From a virus (lineage: Duplodnaviria > Heunggongvirae > Uroviricota > Caudoviricetes): a stretch of 28,397 nt of DNA. This document shows, in pieces, positions 7,468 through 25,947 of the stretch. The notes beneath the pieces are model-generated. The model was not told the origin of the DNA and made no database searches. It was given only the letters and a program-made list of their open reading frames with translations. The translations under genes and the position numbers were made by a program. Numbering within the stretch: position 1 is the stretch's first letter; every line of letters starts with the position of its first letter. The stretch lies in IMG/VR virus record IMGVR_UViG_2663762992_000009; one strand, written 5' to 3'.

Positions 7468-7543
<76 letters not shown>

Positions 7544-7546
7544 TTT

Positions 7547-7623
7547 TGGTGGCCCTTGCTGGACTTGAACCAGCGACCTGGCGATTATGAGTCGCACGCT
7601 CTGACCAACTGAGCTAAAGGGCC
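7547..7623 (-). tRNA. tRNA with CAU anticodon (Ile2-lysidine type or Met)
   Basis: Full cloverleaf on the minus strand: acceptor GGCCCTT/AAGGGCC, D-arm GCTC/GAGC, anticodon loop CTCATAA, T-arm GCTGG-TTCAAGT-CCAGC, CCA end; closely resembles the E. coli ileX sequence as I recall it. Confidence 0.85.
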
Positions 7624-8963: not shown

Positions 8964-9073
8964 GGAGGTAACGTATAAACGGCAGGTGCTTTAGATCAAG
9001 CTTTTTATCATGTCGGCGAAATGAAAAAGGGCTCACCGAAGTGAGCCCTGAATTACCGCCGTTTTCAATTTGC

Positions 9074-9166
9074 CGCAGTGCCGGGTGCCTCCCGATGGTA
9101 TTAACCGCAACGTCAACAGTGGAAGCGAAACCTGACGATGCCCCTACGCTAGTGGGATTCACTGCA
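9074..9166. repeat. repeat unit C (more diverged copy)
   Basis: 5' end gcagtgccgg and 3' end cgctagtgggattcactgca match units A and B with a few substitutions. Confidence 0.6.
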
Positions 9167-9372
9167 ACGGGGGGAACCTATTACCCGCAGACAGCGGCTG
9201 ACAAGATATTTATTTTGCTGAAATGCCAAAATGTGAATCTGCGCATATGAAATTAAACAGAACTTAAACAATTGCAGATACGAACTTGATAGGTTTATGA
9301 AGAAATTACTACGGTCCTCAGGCTTCCCCCTATGAAGCACTTAAGCCTCTTACCTTTTCCAATTGTGATTTT

Positions 9373-13986: not shown

Positions 13987-14727
13987 TCAGGGCCGGTTGA
14001 CGTTTTTTCGCCAGCTTTCCCAGCCAAAATTTACCCATCGGCCACCGTTCATGGACATTCTGTCCATCACCCGCTGACCTGCCAGCTTAGTCAGTGCATC
14101 ATGGTTCAGGTTGGTCAGCATTCCGACGCTGCGCAGGGATGCGGTCCGGCGATCAACAATCTGGTGCAGGATGACCTGCTCGTTGCGTGTCTCACGCTGC
14201 ACACCAACCTCATCAAGGATCAGCAGGTCCACTCCGCACAGCTCCTTCAAAAATTTTTCACCCGAATTTCCATCATCGTACCCGGCATGAAGCGCACTCA
14301 TCACGTCGGCGACGGTGATAACAATCACACTGCGTCCGGCGTTCATCAGGCGGTTACCTATGGCGGCGGCCAGATGATTTTTGCCGGTACCAGGCTTACC
14401 GCTGAACACAAAATTTGTACAACCGGTATCCAGTTCAGCAGCTATGGATTTGGCCTGGCTGAGCGCATGCTTCTGGCCGTCATTCTGCACCCGGTAATTC
14501 TTGAACGAGCATCTGCGATGCAGTGGCTGAATACCGGCCCGACCGAAGATTTTTTCGGCCCTGGTCTGGCGGTTAAGTCGGTCAATTTCCTCGCAGCGTC
14601 TGCGCCCTTCGGCTAGCTGCCATTCCCGCCACTCCCCCGGCGTCCGGAACGGTGCGGAACTGTTGGCCGACCGTGGCGCCAGTTTCCTGATGCGGGCCAG
14701 AATCCCGGTATCTGCGATGTTTCTCAT
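13987..14727 (-). CDS. DnaC-like helicase loader / replication protein (IstB-like AAA+ ATPase; YdaV-like)
   Basis: 246 aa; Walker A (GKPGTGKNHLAAAIG) and Walker B (LLILDEVG) motifs; follows the DUF1376 replication gene. Confidence 0.85.
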   Translation of the reverse strand: MRNIADTGILARIRKLAPRSANSSAPFRTPGEWREWQLAEGRRRCEEIDRLNRQTRAEKIFGRAGIQPLHRRCSFKNYRVQNDGQKHALSQAKSIAAELDTGCTNFVFSGKPGTGKNHLAAAIGNRLMNAGRSVIVITVADVMSALHAGYDDGNSGEKFLKELCGVDLLILDEVGVQRETRNEQVILHQIVDRRTASLRSVGMLTNLNHDALTKLAGQRVMDRMSMNGGRWVNFGWESWRKNVNRP

Positions 14728-14733
14728 GGCTTG

Positions 14734-15651
14734 TCACCCCCTGAAACCCGGTGGAATGGTTGTGTCCGGTGGCGAAATATCCTGAATCCTGGTCGGGCTG
14801 TCGCGGCCACGATTGCCTCCCCGGTCCTGGTCTTTTGCCAGCCAGCCGGTGATAAATTTCCTGATGCCTCGGGCGGTTTTTCGTCGTCGTCGTTCGCTGA
14901 GCAGCCATCCGCGCTGATTACGCAGTGCCTGCCGGACGTCGACCGCCGGATACAGCGTCTCAAACTCGACAACCATCGATTCGGTCACGGAAAATTCAGA
15001 ACCGTCGTTGAGCGGAAGCCGAATAAACTCAGGGTCATCAGGCGGTGTTGATGGCACACCAGCGCTCAGAGGCCGACGCTCAGGTCCGACATGGGCTGGT
15101 CCGGTACCATCGGGCAAACTCGCACCCTGTGACCCGAAATTTTCATCCAGTTGCGTGGGGCTGATTTTTTCAGCTCCGCGCAAGAGGTTTTGATCTTTTA
15201 GATCTGTTTCTTTATCTTTATCTGGATCTTTATTAGTTGCCTTTGTGTTGGGCTCCTGTTCAAACACAGAACCAACACCTGTTGAACATGTGTTATTTTC
15301 GCTGGCAGATTGTGCTTCCTTCCTGTTCCTTCTTGACTGAACAGATGCTTTTCCTGCTGCAGACTTTTTCGCTAAGGTTTCCCTGACCGAATGAAGATCA
15401 TCTTCAATACGCTTGTGAACCCACTCCGTGCCGTTATCAGTAAAAAATTCTCTCAACGACTCTTCTACGGCTCCCCAACGCTCACTGCTAACCCGGGCAA
15501 TCTTTGCCAGCCTGTTTTTCGGTATAGCCCTTCCGGTCTGCCAGTAATTGAACATCAGCAGTAAATAGGCCCCATGCTCCTCGGTTGAAAGATGCATTGT
15601 GTCAGCCAAGTAATCAGCGATATAAAGCTGCATGTATGGAAGTGCCGCCAT
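14734..15651 (-). CDS. replication initiation protein with N-terminal DUF1376 (YdaU-like) domain
   Basis: N-terminus YMQLYIADYLADTMHLSTEEHGAYLLLMFNYWQ is characteristic of DUF1376; long acidic/disordered middle; directly precedes the DnaC-like gene; GAGG SD upstream. Confidence 0.8.
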   Translation of the reverse strand: MAALPYMQLYIADYLADTMHLSTEEHGAYLLLMFNYWQTGRAIPKNRLAKIARVSSERWGAVEESLREFFTDNGTEWVHKRIEDDLHSVRETLAKKSAAGKASVQSRRNRKEAQSASENNTCSTGVGSVFEQEPNTKATNKDPDKDKETDLKDQNLLRGAEKISPTQLDENFGSQGASLPDGTGPAHVGPERRPLSAGVPSTPPDDPEFIRLPLNDGSEFSVTESMVVEFETLYPAVDVRQALRNQRGWLLSERRRRKTARGIRKFITGWLAKDQDRGGNRGRDSPTRIQDISPPDTTIPPGFRG

Positions 15652-15727
15652 AACGCCTCGCTACGCTCTTTTCCGTTCGGTCTGAATACAAAAATTAATA
15701 CTCACTGGTCATGTCTCTCTGTTTGGT

Positions 15728-15791
15728 GCCGAACCTCCTGCTGGTGCTAGCCTGCTGATTCCCCAACCAACAGAACCACAGGAGGTTCGAC
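15728..15791 (+). promoter_or_regulatory. RBS-sequestering hairpin upstream of the plus-strand small gene
   Basis: GCCGAACCTCCTG (15728-15740) pairs in 12 of 13 positions with CAGGAGGTTCGAC (15779-15791), which contains the GGAGG SD of the gene starting at 15792; 38-nt loop. Confidence 0.45.
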
Positions 15792-16004
15792 ATGTCAGAT
15801 ACAAAACTTAAAAATGGATTAACGCCTGAACAAATGGCACACGATATCGCTATGGTGCTCATCGGGAACCCATCCCATGAATGGCTTTCGGATAATGCGA
15901 CCAAAACTCGTAGCACTGAATTAGCAATGAGCGCTGTAGCAGAAGAAGTCATGAACATGGAAAAACATCTTGCTGCAGCTCTTCATCAGTACACGGAGAA
16001 CTAA
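15792..16004 (+). CDS. small hypothetical protein (70 aa) encoded antisense to the early-right operon
   Basis: ATG with a near-ideal SD (GGAGG, 6-nt spacing) and an intrinsic terminator directly after the stop; preferred over the overlapping minus-strand ORF 15695-15958, which has no such signals. Confidence 0.6.
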   Translation: MSDTKLKNGLTPEQMAHDIAMVLIGNPSHEWLSDNATKTRSTELAMSAVAEEVMNMEKHLAAALHQYTEN

Positions 16005-16014
16005 TCCGCATCAA

Positions 16015-16040
16015 AGGTCGCTGAGTTCGCGACCTTTTTT
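16015..16040 (+). terminator. rho-independent terminator
   Basis: AGGTCGC (16015-16021) / GCGACCT (16029-16035) with a 6-nt loop, followed by TTTTTT. Confidence 0.65.
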
Positions 16041-16261
16041 CAGTCCACTCCAGTAGGCATCCCCAACCATTTTTTTATATCGCTATAACTCAGCGTTATG
16101 GGCTGATTTTTGCCGGACTCTTCAACCGGTATGGTATGTTCCTCTTCAAATTTCTTTTCGAAGGTACGCATGTGCTCACGCCAGGCATTTCGATCTTCGA
16201 TCGCTTCTTCCCTCCGGTTCAGTCTGGCGTAATACCGTTCCTGCTCAGTCAACGTTTTCAT
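16040..16261 (-). CDS. small hypothetical protein (73 aa), charged/coiled-coil-like
   Basis: ATG at 16261 with an AGGAGA SD 5 nt upstream; lies between the YdaT-like and YdaU-like genes on the same strand. Confidence 0.5.
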   Translation of the reverse strand: MKTLTEQERYYARLNRREEAIEDRNAWREHMRTFEKKFEEEHTIPVEESGKNQPITLSYSDIKKWLGMPTGVD

Positions 16262-16277
16262 TACTTCTCCTGCATGG

Positions 16278-16781
16278 TTACAACAGATGGTCACTGGTCA
16301 TGTCTCTGATACTGCTGGCGGTAACTGCTTCGTAGCGTCTGTATTGCTTGTATGGCTTCATCACACTCCCGTTCAAAATCCGTAACAGGCGCACCAAGAA
16401 GTACCGCATTTGCCACTGCGGTTTTTTTAAAAACTGTGTAAGCAGATACTCGATGCTATGCCCTGCCGTGACCTGCTTATGCAGCTCCGGCGCGTGTATC
16501 CGGATTGCTTCAAGAACTGCGGGGATTAGCGCTGAAAACTTTTCGCGGTGCTCTGTCGTTTCGAGTTTTCGCCATCGCTGAAAAATGTTTATACGATTCC
16601 GGCGCCATGCTTCGTAATCCACCGTTCCGTCATCACGTTCTATACGGTGGACAGCAATATCTGGTCTCACTTGCTGTTCCAGAAAGGCGCGGGTGATCAA
16701 CTGTGTTGCACTTTCCTGACTCATTGCGGGTGTAGCCAGCCAGGATGACAGTGCTTTGTTGGCATCCTCAGGGGTGATCAT
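16278..16781 (-). CDS. YdaT-like protein (CII-analogue regulator / putative toxin family of Rac prophage)
   Basis: 167 aa; segment IFQRWRKLETTEHREKFSALIPAVLEAIRIHAPELHKQV resembles the conserved core of E. coli YdaT as I recall it; immediately downstream of the cro-like gene with an overlapping start; GAGGTG SD. Confidence 0.7.
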   Translation of the reverse strand: MITPEDANKALSSWLATPAMSQESATQLITRAFLEQQVRPDIAVHRIERDDGTVDYEAWRRNRINIFQRWRKLETTEHREKFSALIPAVLEAIRIHAPELHKQVTAGHSIEYLLTQFLKKPQWQMRYFLVRLLRILNGSVMKPYKQYRRYEAVTASSIRDMTSDHLL

Positions 16782-17043
16782 CGTTGTTCACCTCTCTCGC
16801 ATCCTTTAGTGGTAGATTTTGATGGCTAGGCAAAGCATCCGTTGGATTAGGGTAAAGAACTGAGTCGAGCTGATGCGGTGTAACTGCATACCCTACGGCC
16901 TCACAAAAAGGAATAATTCGTCGCGGTGGGAATTTTCCTGTTGTAACCCATAGACTTACGTTTTGCTGACTAGTTTTAAGACGTCGGGCGATCTCGGTCT
17001 GATTAGTGATGCCGAATAGTCGGCTCCTGGTTTTAAATTCCAT
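16768..17043 (-). CDS. Cro/YdaS-like HTH regulator
   Basis: Start at the ATG at 17043 with a GGAGGA SD; HTH segment QTEIARRLKTSQQNVSLWV; divergent from the CI-like repressor across an operator-containing intergenic region. Confidence 0.75.
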   Translation of the reverse strand: MEFKTRSRLFGITNQTEIARRLKTSQQNVSLWVTTGKFPPRRIIPFCEAVGYAVTPHQLDSVLYPNPTDALPSHQNLPLKDAREVNNDDHP

Positions 17044-17061
17044 ATATCCTCCAAATGTCAC

Positions 17062-17145: not shown

Positions 17146-17580
17146 ATGAAAAAAAACAACGAATCAGCTCAATACGAGACTTCAGCCAGAAGGATCAAAC
17201 AGGTCCTGTATGAATTAGGCTGGAACCAAAGTCGCCTGGCTAAAGAAATTGGGGTTTCAGCTCAGGCGGTACAACAATGGGCAAAAGGTACTTCTCGACC
17301 GAATGGCCCTAATCTAACTCGACTTTCTGAAGTCACAAGCAAACCTGAAGCATGGTTTTTCAGTGATGTCAGCGGGTTATCTGAGAGTCATGCAGTACAT
17401 TTACCAGAAAGTAATGGTTCAGACTTTCTCCCGCTTAGCGATGAAGAGATCAGACTGCTAACTGTCTTCAGGAAATTTCCTTCTGTAGAGAGTAAAAACA
17501 TGCTGTTAGCGTTTGAGATGAGACTTCAGGAGATAAAAGAATACTATTCCAAATACGCTAATCCCAATAAAAACCGATAG
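17146..17580 (+). CDS. CI-like prophage repressor, HTH_XRE type, short form without a LexA-like peptidase S24 domain
   Basis: 144 aa; N-terminal HTH (NQSRLAKEIGVSAQAVQQWAKG); the C-terminal ~60 aa is too short for an S24 domain; divergently arranged to the cro-like gene. Confidence 0.8.
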   Translation: MKKNNESAQYETSARRIKQVLYELGWNQSRLAKEIGVSAQAVQQWAKGTSRPNGPNLTRLSEVTSKPEAWFFSDVSGLSESHAVHLPESNGSDFLPLSDEEIRLLTVFRKFPSVESKNMLLAFEMRLQEIKEYYSKYANPNKNR

Positions 17581-19355: not shown

Positions 19356-19491
19356 GGCAGGCATTTTCCCGGTTTTTACATCCCGGCGATGCTGAGGTGG
19401 GCGACCAAACCCACCGACAGAGACATGACCAATGAGCACCAGAGGTGATCACCGATCGCCTCATTCTAAACAGAAGTGAGGTTAAAAAACA

Positions 19492-25608: not shown

Positions 25609-25728
25609 CTGAAAAAGGAGCTGAGCTGCAATCCTTTGATTTCTGGACCTGATCATCGTTGTTCAACCCCGGCCATCAGCTATTACGTATAGTGCGCTGA
25701 TGGTCATAAAGTAAAAGAGACATGACCA

Positions 25729-25947
25729 ATGATTCAGCAAATCGTTTTTAATGAAGAATGGATGGTAGAAAAAAAACTACAGGATCGGACTGGTTTAAAT
25801 GACCGCCAGATTGAGAAATACAGGCAAAATTGCTGGATTGAAGGGGTTCATTTTAAAAGAGTATCTCCCTTAGGAAACCTCAGAAGTTCTCGCGGAACGA
25901 CCTGGTACAACTACCCCATGATTAACAAGTTTATTCAGGATTCCTAG
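25729..25947 (+). CDS. xis: excisionase-like protein
   Basis: 72-aa ORF immediately upstream of and nearly abutting the integrase gene; segment [27 protein letters not shown] is typical of putative excisionases of Rac/CP-933-type prophages. Confidence 0.65.

Follow-up and report, generated by a model that had tools for sequence, protein, structure and literature searches.

A small antisense gene and its recurrent palindromic leader in the early operon of a lambdoid prophage

The stretch of DNA that we analysed (28,397 nucleotides, IMG/VR record IMGVR_UViG_2663762992_000009, referred to throughout as the window) contains, at about 15.7-16.0 kb, the immunity and replication region of a Rac/CP-933P-type lambdoid prophage. 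In this phage type, YdaT is the equivalent of CII (PMC9986795). No DNA near-identical to the window was found in the E. coli genomes or phage records searched. The genes of the region, together with a terminator and a pair of direct repeats, are arranged as follows.

13987-14727, minus strand: DnaC-like gene
14734-15651, minus strand: DUF1376/YdaU-like primosomal gene
15702-15718, plus strand: left copy of a 17-nt direct repeat, which duplicates codons of the YdaT C terminus (...RHDQ and stop)
15792-16004, plus strand: gene A, 70 aa, with homologues at 32-99% identity and a synonymous excess in its frame
16013-16040, plus strand: intrinsic terminator of A, with a 9-bp stem, a 7-nt loop and T6, read from the sequence
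16040-16261, minus strand: gene B, the early-operon partner of A, 73 aa here, convergent with A and frameshifted
16278-16781, minus strand: YdaT-like gene, with a PHROG match to "CII-like activator"
16291-16307, plus strand: 17-nt direct repeat, right copy, situated where the YdaT-like frame truly ends
16768-17061, minus strand: Cro/YdaS-like gene
17146-17580, plus strand: CI-like HTH repressor

The 70-aa open reading frame of gene A is present on the plus strand where the first-pass annotation of this DNA had placed it, and its SD (AGGAGG at 15780-15785, 6 nt upstream of the ATG) is as near to ideal as had been stated. The description of A as an antisense gene beside a YdaU-like gene also stands, but the YdaT-like gene that had been named as its other neighbor is not adjacent to it: gene B, which had been overlooked, lies between the two.

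Codon-level comparison of its homologues shows A to be a conserved protein-coding gene. The plus frame is open in all eight diverged lineages compared, and the synonymous fraction of codon changes in this frame, pooled over eight lineage pairs, is 0.42, versus 0.06-0.10 in four of the other frames. The fraction is 0.34 in the antisense frame that shares the wobble positions of A, which is also the frame of an 87-aa minus-strand ORF in the window, and this raised value would favor the view that ORF A is a chance open frame and that the only real feature is an RNA or DNA structure in the early operon. We regard that view as highly improbable, given that the antisense frame contains stop codons in seven of the eight lineages and that the N-terminal 25 residues of A (M-S-x-KLKNGLTPxEMAHDIAMVLIG) are almost invariant, yet are specified by codons that differ among homologues. 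The first-pass annotation had named conservation of the overlapping minus-strand ORF, in place of A, as grounds for dismissing the gene; because the antisense ORF is broken in nearly all lineages and the plus frame is conserved, those grounds fall away. An in-frame N-terminal extension of A and an upstream leader ORF were also sought, and neither is conserved.

Homologues of A are 65-78 aa long and are present in Salmonella and Edwardsiella prophages, forming three clusters by word-indexed search and only four clusters at 50% identity by exhaustive profile search. The protein is acidic, has no hydrophobic span and is predicted to fold into a short helix followed by a long helix (AF2 model, pLDDT 77.6). 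Searches against Pfam, PHROG, NCBIfam, PADLOC, PDB sequences and PDB folds returned no significant match for A. (Weak matches to PDC-S02 and PDC-M18A, with E values of 5e-4 to 2e-2 in the searches with A and B, are not taken as evidence.) The suggestion that A might be an antirepressor or a toxin finds no support, there being no hydrophobic segment, no LexA box, and a neutral transposon insertion in the Edwardsiella homologue. That insertion mutant, ETAE_1610::Tn of E. piscicida, is viable and served as a no-effect control in a growth test for Tn-seq validation (PMC11871307), which argues that A is not an essential antitoxin.

Following its stop codon, A has its own terminator, as had been reported: a plus-strand stem-loop with a T6 tract at 16013-16040, whose sequence is AAAGGTCGC-TGAGTTC-GCGACCTTT and then the T6 tract. 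A consensus terminator scan did not list this element, probably because an extension of its stem consumes the T tract. Changes in the stem among homologues are compensatory (GGTCGC/GCGACC, GGCCGC/GCGGCC and GAGGCCGG/CCGGCCTC), and because the terminator and the stem in the leader of A (described below) both recur in every diverged A homologue with compensatory changes, the two structures exceed what is expected by chance.

Gene A is followed, at every locus examined, by B, a small gene (73-115 aa) on the opposite strand and convergent with A. These partners of A have in common an N-terminal motif (EQERYYARxNR or FDEVVKxCxRENRKAD) and a C-terminal one (RAYxxGLxKGRxxGGLExL). The B family is much larger than that of A: it comprises 91 clusters at 90% identity, and those with a named source are nearly all from Salmonella prophages. 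Its genes often occur without A. Paired A and B genes are present in three contexts: between YdaT and the replication gene (the window and loci L003 and L018), directly after Cro (L001 and L022), and in the Edwardsiella early-left operon, upstream of recombination genes (L011-L014).

The terminator of A lies inside the 3' coding end of B in the intact relatives (L001, L003, L009, L018, L022 and L027), such that the B codons K-K-G-R-x-x-G-G-L are the A-run and stem of the terminator seen from the other strand. At the same place, B genes without a downstream A read GAT AAA GGC CGC GAA CAG GGC GGG, with an imperfect stem and no A/T tract, and the terminator is thus an adaptation tied to A. In the window, A is intact, B is frameshifted at an A7 run (16070-16076), and the B frame crosses the terminator only in its shifted frame. 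The closest intact homologue of B (P0044 in L027) has an A8 run and ends in KKMVGDAYWSGLKKGRELSDL and a stop, a peptide also present in the shifted frame of the window; the C terminus of the B family, ...MVGDAYWSGLKKGRELSDL and stop, can be read in the other frame to about 16011, across the terminator.

The product of B is predicted to fold as a helix, a beta-hairpin and a helix (AF2 model, pLDDT 81.8), matching only generic coiled coils, and searches against Pfam, PHROG, NCBIfam and PADLOC returned nothing significant. Homologues of B in Edwardsiella are named "toxin-antitoxin system, toxin component, PIN family" at NCBI. The name finds no support for B, which has no PIN match in Pfam or NCBIfam and whose modeled fold matches coiled coils only.

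The arrangement of the two genes suggests an antagonistic pair, with A on the lysogen side and B on the lytic side: A is on the lysogen strand with its own signals, B is convergent and overlapping on the lytic strand, and their expression is consequently predicted to be mutually exclusive. One could go further and take a toxin-antitoxin-like or regulator/anti-regulator pair to be the essence of the locus, B being an early lytic-side effector (possibly toxic) and A its antagonist, both as a protein and, by way of the 3' overlap, as an antisense RNA. Such a pair would fit the constancy of A-B convergence over three genomic contexts, the presence of a terminator in the coding end of B only where A is present, and the PIN-toxin name of the Edwardsiella homologues, although that name lacks domain support from Pfam, NCBIfam or the AF2 model. 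We nevertheless consider it unlikely that this is what the locus is about: B occurs without A in many prophages, the window lineage retains an intact A with a frameshifted B, the A::Tn mutant of E. piscicida is viable, and the same leader drives many cargos that have no B partner, the downstream flank of leader cassettes being convergent in only 21 of 38 dereplicated contexts. The pair hypothesis is compatible with either reading of the leader given below.

The leader of A occupies 15723-15794 and carries the following elements.

15723-15728, plus strand: -35-like hexamer TTGGTG, with which the conserved leader begins on its left
15727-15740, plus strand: 5' arm of an inverted repeat, containing the anti-SD (GCCGAACCTCCTG), nearly invariant in 56 leaders and coinciding with the inferred promoter spacer
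15742-15745 and 15775-15778, plus strand: distal stem of 4 bp, TGGT with ACCA
15745-15753, plus strand: extended -10-like element TGcTAGCCT, which aligns with TATAAT, GATAAT, GATACT and TATCCT elsewhere
15779-15792, plus strand: 3' arm, in which the SD (AGGAGG, 15780-15785) is followed by a spacer that does not vary (TTCGAC) and by the A of the ATG

This leader is one of 56 distinct versions that precede about 25 unrelated cargo ORFs. IMG/VR was scanned for the 3' arm together with the ATG (AGGAGGTTCGACATG), resulting in 120 loci, of which 62 also have an anti-SD arm (CGAACCTTCC or CGAACCTCCT) some 60 nt ahead of the ATG; scanning again with the 5' arm brought in further loci, and the 56 distinct leaders derive from both scans combined (a sample biased toward conserved arms, in that the scans required exact 15-16-mers of one arm). 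The leaders occur in lambdoid prophages of enterobacteria (Escherichia, Salmonella and Edwardsiella), where they always stand back-to-back with an early gene that starts next to them on the other strand. In all 38 dereplicated contexts, the neighbor upstream of the leader has the opposite orientation, and at locus L149 the SD and ATG of this flanking early gene are only 8-17 nt beyond the leader edge. In two cases (L009 and L027), a single prophage carries two cassettes.

The cargo ORFs are of some 25 types and encode 56-157 aa. Among 10 that we tested, one matches the NCBIfam entry "ECs1072 family phage-associated protein," one is BssS-like, and two fall into a PHROG without assigned function; the remainder have no match anywhere, PADLOC included. 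For four common cargos, the only cluster names are "hypothetical" and "BssS family." Of 5,426 complete E. coli genomes, 464 carry the ECs1072 cassette, in a slot consisting of YdaT, the antisense cargo and a replication gene. A signal for ECs1072, a cargo behind this leader, was scored on arrays in uninduced O157 Sakai, a hint of expression outside induction.

The first-pass annotation had noted that the SD is complementary to an upstream segment in 12 of 13 pairs (GCCGAACCTCCTG/CAGGAGGTTCGAC), and this complementarity is borne out by arms of 14 nt that are 93% complementary and 38 nt apart. The RNA fold of 15720-15800 that it had proposed yields, on the plus strand, -28.3 kcal/mol (z = -2.86), with 1 of 200 shuffles as stable, versus -41.0 kcal/mol (z = -4.95) for the hairpin of the minus strand, whose z scores range from -1.8 to -5.6 in other lineages. 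Across full leaders, the mean MFE is -23.8 kcal/mol for the plus strand and -31.3 kcal/mol for the minus strand, and the minus strand is the more stable in 54 of 56. In nine diverged A-type leaders, 86.8% of cells pair across the arms versus 30-50% with slid partners, and at two positions both members of the pair have changed: C-G to U-A within the SD in Edwardsiella (AGGAGG to AGGAGA) and T-A/C-G in the distal stem. Covariation is thin (these two pairs, with 10-14 of 500 shuffles in control [a]), because the arms are nearly invariant and the scans demanded exact arms. Patterns of G-U versus A-C are asymmetric in both directions and indicate no strand. As judged from these alignments, the inverted repeat is under selection, since 10-13 complementary bases between separately conserved blocks would not arise by chance.

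It had been proposed from the window that the SD is locked in this hairpin, which would act as a translational gate. The proposal is not supported as stated, in that the leader stands before about 25 ORFs and has a -10-like box in its "loop." Aligning the 56 leaders places this -10-like hexamer at a fixed position, approximately -44 to -39 from the ATG, with A at position 2 and T at position 6 in 49 of them. The hexamer is a perfect TATAAT in 8 of the 56 and GATAAT, GATATT, GATACT or TATCCT in others; in the window it is TAGCCT, preceded by TG. In most of the leaders, the -10-like box is preceded, at a distance of 15-17 nt, by (T/C)TGGTG. In the window itself, the -10 (TAGCCT) and -35 are weak, with PWM scores about the background median; the -35 could be TTGGTG with a spacer of 19 nt or GTGCCG with one of 16 nt, and a consensus promoter scan of the window reported none at the leader.

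Conservation upstream of the A ATG begins abruptly at (T)TGGTG, and the sequence farther upstream varies by context. Because this upstream sequence is context-specific and yet the cassettes are portable, the parsimonious placement of the promoter, on the evidence of the alignment, is inside the conserved block. Transcription from TTGGTG and TGcTAGCCT would start in the "loop," at about 15758-15761 and 30-35 nt before the ATG, resulting in a 5'UTR of about 32 nt that would be C/A-rich and weakly structured and would leave the strong SD free. From the inferred start, the 5'UTRs of the 56 leaders fold at a mean of -6.6 kcal/mol. Since it lies between the -35-like and -10-like boxes, the 5' arm would represent the promoter spacer and is probably missing from the mRNA of A. 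So strongly conserved a spacer is unusual for a sigma-70 promoter, and a transcript that includes the spacer is possible.

Rfam (searched with the whole window and in local E-value mode) has no family at this locus. The anti-sRNAs AgvB and AsxR were considered as the identity of the C/A-rich leader and rejected, as they lie at the late PR' moron site.

Type I toxin mRNAs, such as tisB, hok and zorO, have an anti-SD in their 5' region. Gene A resembles them in being small and in having an upstream segment complementary to its SD, and a transcript that includes the spacer would extend the resemblance: the mRNA of A would start upstream of 15727, the anti-SD arm in its 5'UTR would lock the SD, and the structure would have to be opened before translation, for instance by processing of the 5' end, by a trans-acting RNA or by a standby ribosome, in the manner of the type I toxin mRNAs. 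Were the leader transcribed in full, the SD (GGAG) would be completely paired in 53 of the 56 plus-strand MFE structures. The stem is conserved, with the C-G to U-A double change falling inside the Edwardsiella SD; C-to-T changes in L003 and L022 retain G-U pairs on the plus strand only; and promoter function does not explain the extreme conservation of the 5' arm. However, conservation that starts exactly at TGGTG, with variable sequence before it, implies that no conserved promoter could lie upstream, the conserved -10-like box is situated between the arms, and the hairpin is stronger on the minus strand in nearly all leaders. Unlike type I toxins, moreover, A looks soluble, being acidic, helical and non-hydrophobic and lacking a membrane helix; no antitoxin sRNA dedicated to it came to light, and transcription from the cassette promoter probably does not include the anti-SD. 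Translational gating of A by the hairpin is, on these sequence features, doubtful, and we assign it a rather low probability.

The inverted repeat might instead act as DNA, its arms being half-sites for a protein (an operator or activator site) around the -10 and start, or a recombination or homology patch for the exchange of cargos. The arms do flank the inferred -10 and start site, the leader is the sole segment conserved among about 25 unrelated cargos (as expected of a cassette-exchange junction), and short repeated boundary sequences flank the cassette in the window. Against this, the half-sites are about 50 bp apart from center to center, which is atypical for an operator, and the occurrence of the same leader amid different repressor types excludes the immunity repressor as the binding protein. 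The leader lacks the known YdaT site (TTGATTN6AATCAA), and reading of the leader sequences revealed no LexA box (CTG-N10-CAG) or CII-type TTGC repeats. Compensatory change also favors base pairing over recognition of a fixed sequence, and we view a role at the DNA level as quite improbable.

Returning to a promoter within the leader, which is the reading that we prefer, it is about evenly balanced, in our estimation, that the A unit consists of a conserved promoter-leader of about 70 nt, a cargo ORF and an intrinsic terminator, set antisense in the early operon. By analogy with morons and with lambda OOP/cII, the cargo would be made from its own promoter while the early operon is repressed, that is, in lysogeny; in lytic growth, again by analogy with lambda cII/OOP, it would be silenced by convergent early transcription and by sense/antisense pairing. 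The hairpin would then form only in RNAs that span the whole leader, chiefly the early-operon transcript and also read-through RNA of the plus strand. Barring an unseen promoter of their own, the replication genes are reached only by early-operon RNA that crosses the cassette, and this RNA would therefore contain both arms. In the early mRNA the hairpin would be at its strongest and would abut the ribosome-binding site of the next early gene in most contexts (directly so for L149); in the window, that site follows some 70 nt after the hairpin. Its role there may be one of processing, stabilization or insulation. In read-through RNA of the plus strand the hairpin would be a translational lock, albeit one that is not in the primary transcript of the cassette.

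The cassette behaves as an insertion. At two related YdaT loci, L007 and L008 (from Citrobacter braakii and a MAG), YdaT is followed straight by the next ORF of the early operon and the cassette is absent, and presence/absence polymorphism of the cassette is thus seen among related prophages. In the window, a perfect 17-nt direct repeat brackets A and B. (Its interpretation as a simple target-site duplication is weakened, since the window contains four occurrences of the same 16-mer.) With its own terminator and its presence or absence among relatives, A falls into the right general category under the label "moron" that had been suggested for it. We hold with moderate confidence that 15723-16040 of the window represents a moron-type accessory cassette, reversed in the early-right operon of a Rac/CP-933P-like lambdoid prophage.

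Several known systems resemble this unit in part. One is the ECs1072 cassette (NCBIfam NF033230) of E. coli O157-type prophages, which has the same leader, slot and orientation, although its cargo is unrelated to A (151 aa), has no B-type partner and has no terminator embedded in a neighboring gene. In lambda and P22, sieB is expressed in the lysogen and lies antisense within the pL operon, and its product is larger than A and membrane-associated. Gene A is likewise embedded in opposite orientation in an early operon, with what would be, by analogy, its own lysogen promoter, but has no sequence relationship to sieB. OOP of lambda, which has a counterpart in OOP-BTP1 of the Salmonella prophage BTP1, is a non-coding RNA of 77 nt. 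Where OOP lies and how it affects cII are described in PMC7067206, which also mentions sas/sieB of P22. As in lambda OOP/cII, the A transcript is short, on the repressor strand, and situated between a small early gene and a replication gene, and its terminator lies within the 3' coding end of the convergent early gene, resulting in a sense/antisense overlap. Unlike OOP, it encodes a conserved protein and has no sequence or Rfam similarity to that RNA, and the gene that it overlaps, B, is not CII. With morons (a concept that we take from PMC7067206), the A unit shares autonomy, its own terminator, a probable promoter of its own and a short flanking direct repeat; it differs in lying within the early operon in antisense orientation rather than at the late PR' site, and in belonging to a set of cassettes with one conserved palindromic leader, a feature that we did not find in the literature searched.

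No published description of the leader sequence or of the cargo locus tags was found in that literature. Relative to it, a leader common to about 25 unrelated antisense cargos at one slot of the early operon is new, as are the A and B families, neither of which has a supported functional annotation, and a terminator inside the coding end of the partner gene. Tentatively, and as a possibility only, we propose that the leader marks a widespread and previously undescribed cassette system, in which unrelated accessory genes are swapped at a fixed antisense slot behind one two-way control element and in which cargo and lytic expression are mutually exclusive. On one strand, this element would provide the cargo promoter and translation-initiation region, and on the other, a hairpin for processing, stability or insulation. 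The swapped cargos could be factors of superinfection, defense or counter-defense.

Prophage accessory genes drive phage immunity, virulence and host physiology, and they are hard to spot from sequence. Should the leader prove to be a shared control element, a single short DNA signature would suffice to recognize an entire class of cargos expressed in lysogens, of which about 25 families, nearly all uncharacterized, have already been seen at a defined antisense slot beside replication genes. If the proposal is true, a single palindromic element is read differently on each strand and couples the lysogenic and lytic programs by convergent transcription, which would carry the cII/OOP paradigm of lambda beyond a non-coding RNA, to cassettes that encode proteins.

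The conserved leader of about 70 nt, which precedes some 25 unrelated cargo ORFs, contains a C/A-rich stretch between its -10-like box and the Shine-Dalgarno sequence (15758-15779 in the window), with an equivalent part in all leaders. These stretches, among them CCCCAACCAACAGAACCA and CCACAACTAAGAACC, include A-R-N-like triplets and in sequence resemble translational enhancers and Hfq/GcvB-type target sites. In some prophages (L009, L027, and L024-L026), the early region holds two cassettes that share this leader; in one example, the second cargo, a 94-aa protein whose N terminus, MCF..QCPICG, is possibly a zinc ribbon, overlaps a 166-aa early gene at the latter's 3' end.

A consensus terminator scan of the window did not report the clear stem-loop and T6 tract at 16013-16040, downstream of the 70-aa plus-strand gene, probably because the T tract was consumed by A/T extension of the stem; given this miss, negative results of the scan should be treated with caution. 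Rfam matches in the window (7479-7623 and 9018-9195, both on the minus strand) are two adjacent tRNA matches and, elsewhere, one copy of the sRNA STnc100.

Gene B, the small convergent partner of this gene, has 81-aa homologues in Edwardsiella (L011-L014; 4220-4465, minus strand) that are named “toxin-antitoxin system, toxin component, PIN family protein” in RefSeq. Because no PIN domain is detectable in these homologues, the name looks like a propagated misannotation.

Both gene B and the neighboring YdaT-like gene are frameshifted at homopolymers, as follows.

16040-16261, minus strand: gene B, with its frameshift at an A7 run (16070-16076)
16278-16781, minus strand: YdaT-like gene, with its frameshift at an A7 run (16422-16428)

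The tract in gene B is A7 in the window versus A8 in the intact homologue of locus L027, and as a result of the frameshift, the conserved C-terminal motif is missing. The YdaT family C terminus (...FERECDEAI...YRQQYQRHDQ*), seen in the 165-aa proteins of loci L007 and L008, lies in a different frame in the window, within a 41-aa ORF (16291-16416). A sequencing error in this record can be ruled out for the YdaT-like gene, since the same 167-aa product is called in three independent Logan assemblies (L004-L006). Homopolymer frameshifts in two adjacent early genes suggest either a decaying prophage or slippage-prone tracts.

The terminal residues ...QRHDQ* are encoded by a 16-mer, AGAGACATGACCA(G/A)TG, in two of its four copies in the window (0.01 expected), which are located as follows.

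minus-strand sense: 15703-15718 and 16292-16307
plus-strand sense: 19419-19434 and 25716-25731

Every copy is oriented in the sense of its local early operon, and the sites fall after YdaT, before YdaU, before a RecE-like ORF of 1,034 aa, and where a 72-aa ORF upstream of a 415-aa ORF begins. Found too in loci L004-L006, L015, L027, and L028, the 16-mer might mark a module boundary, act as a linker, or serve as a regulatory site.
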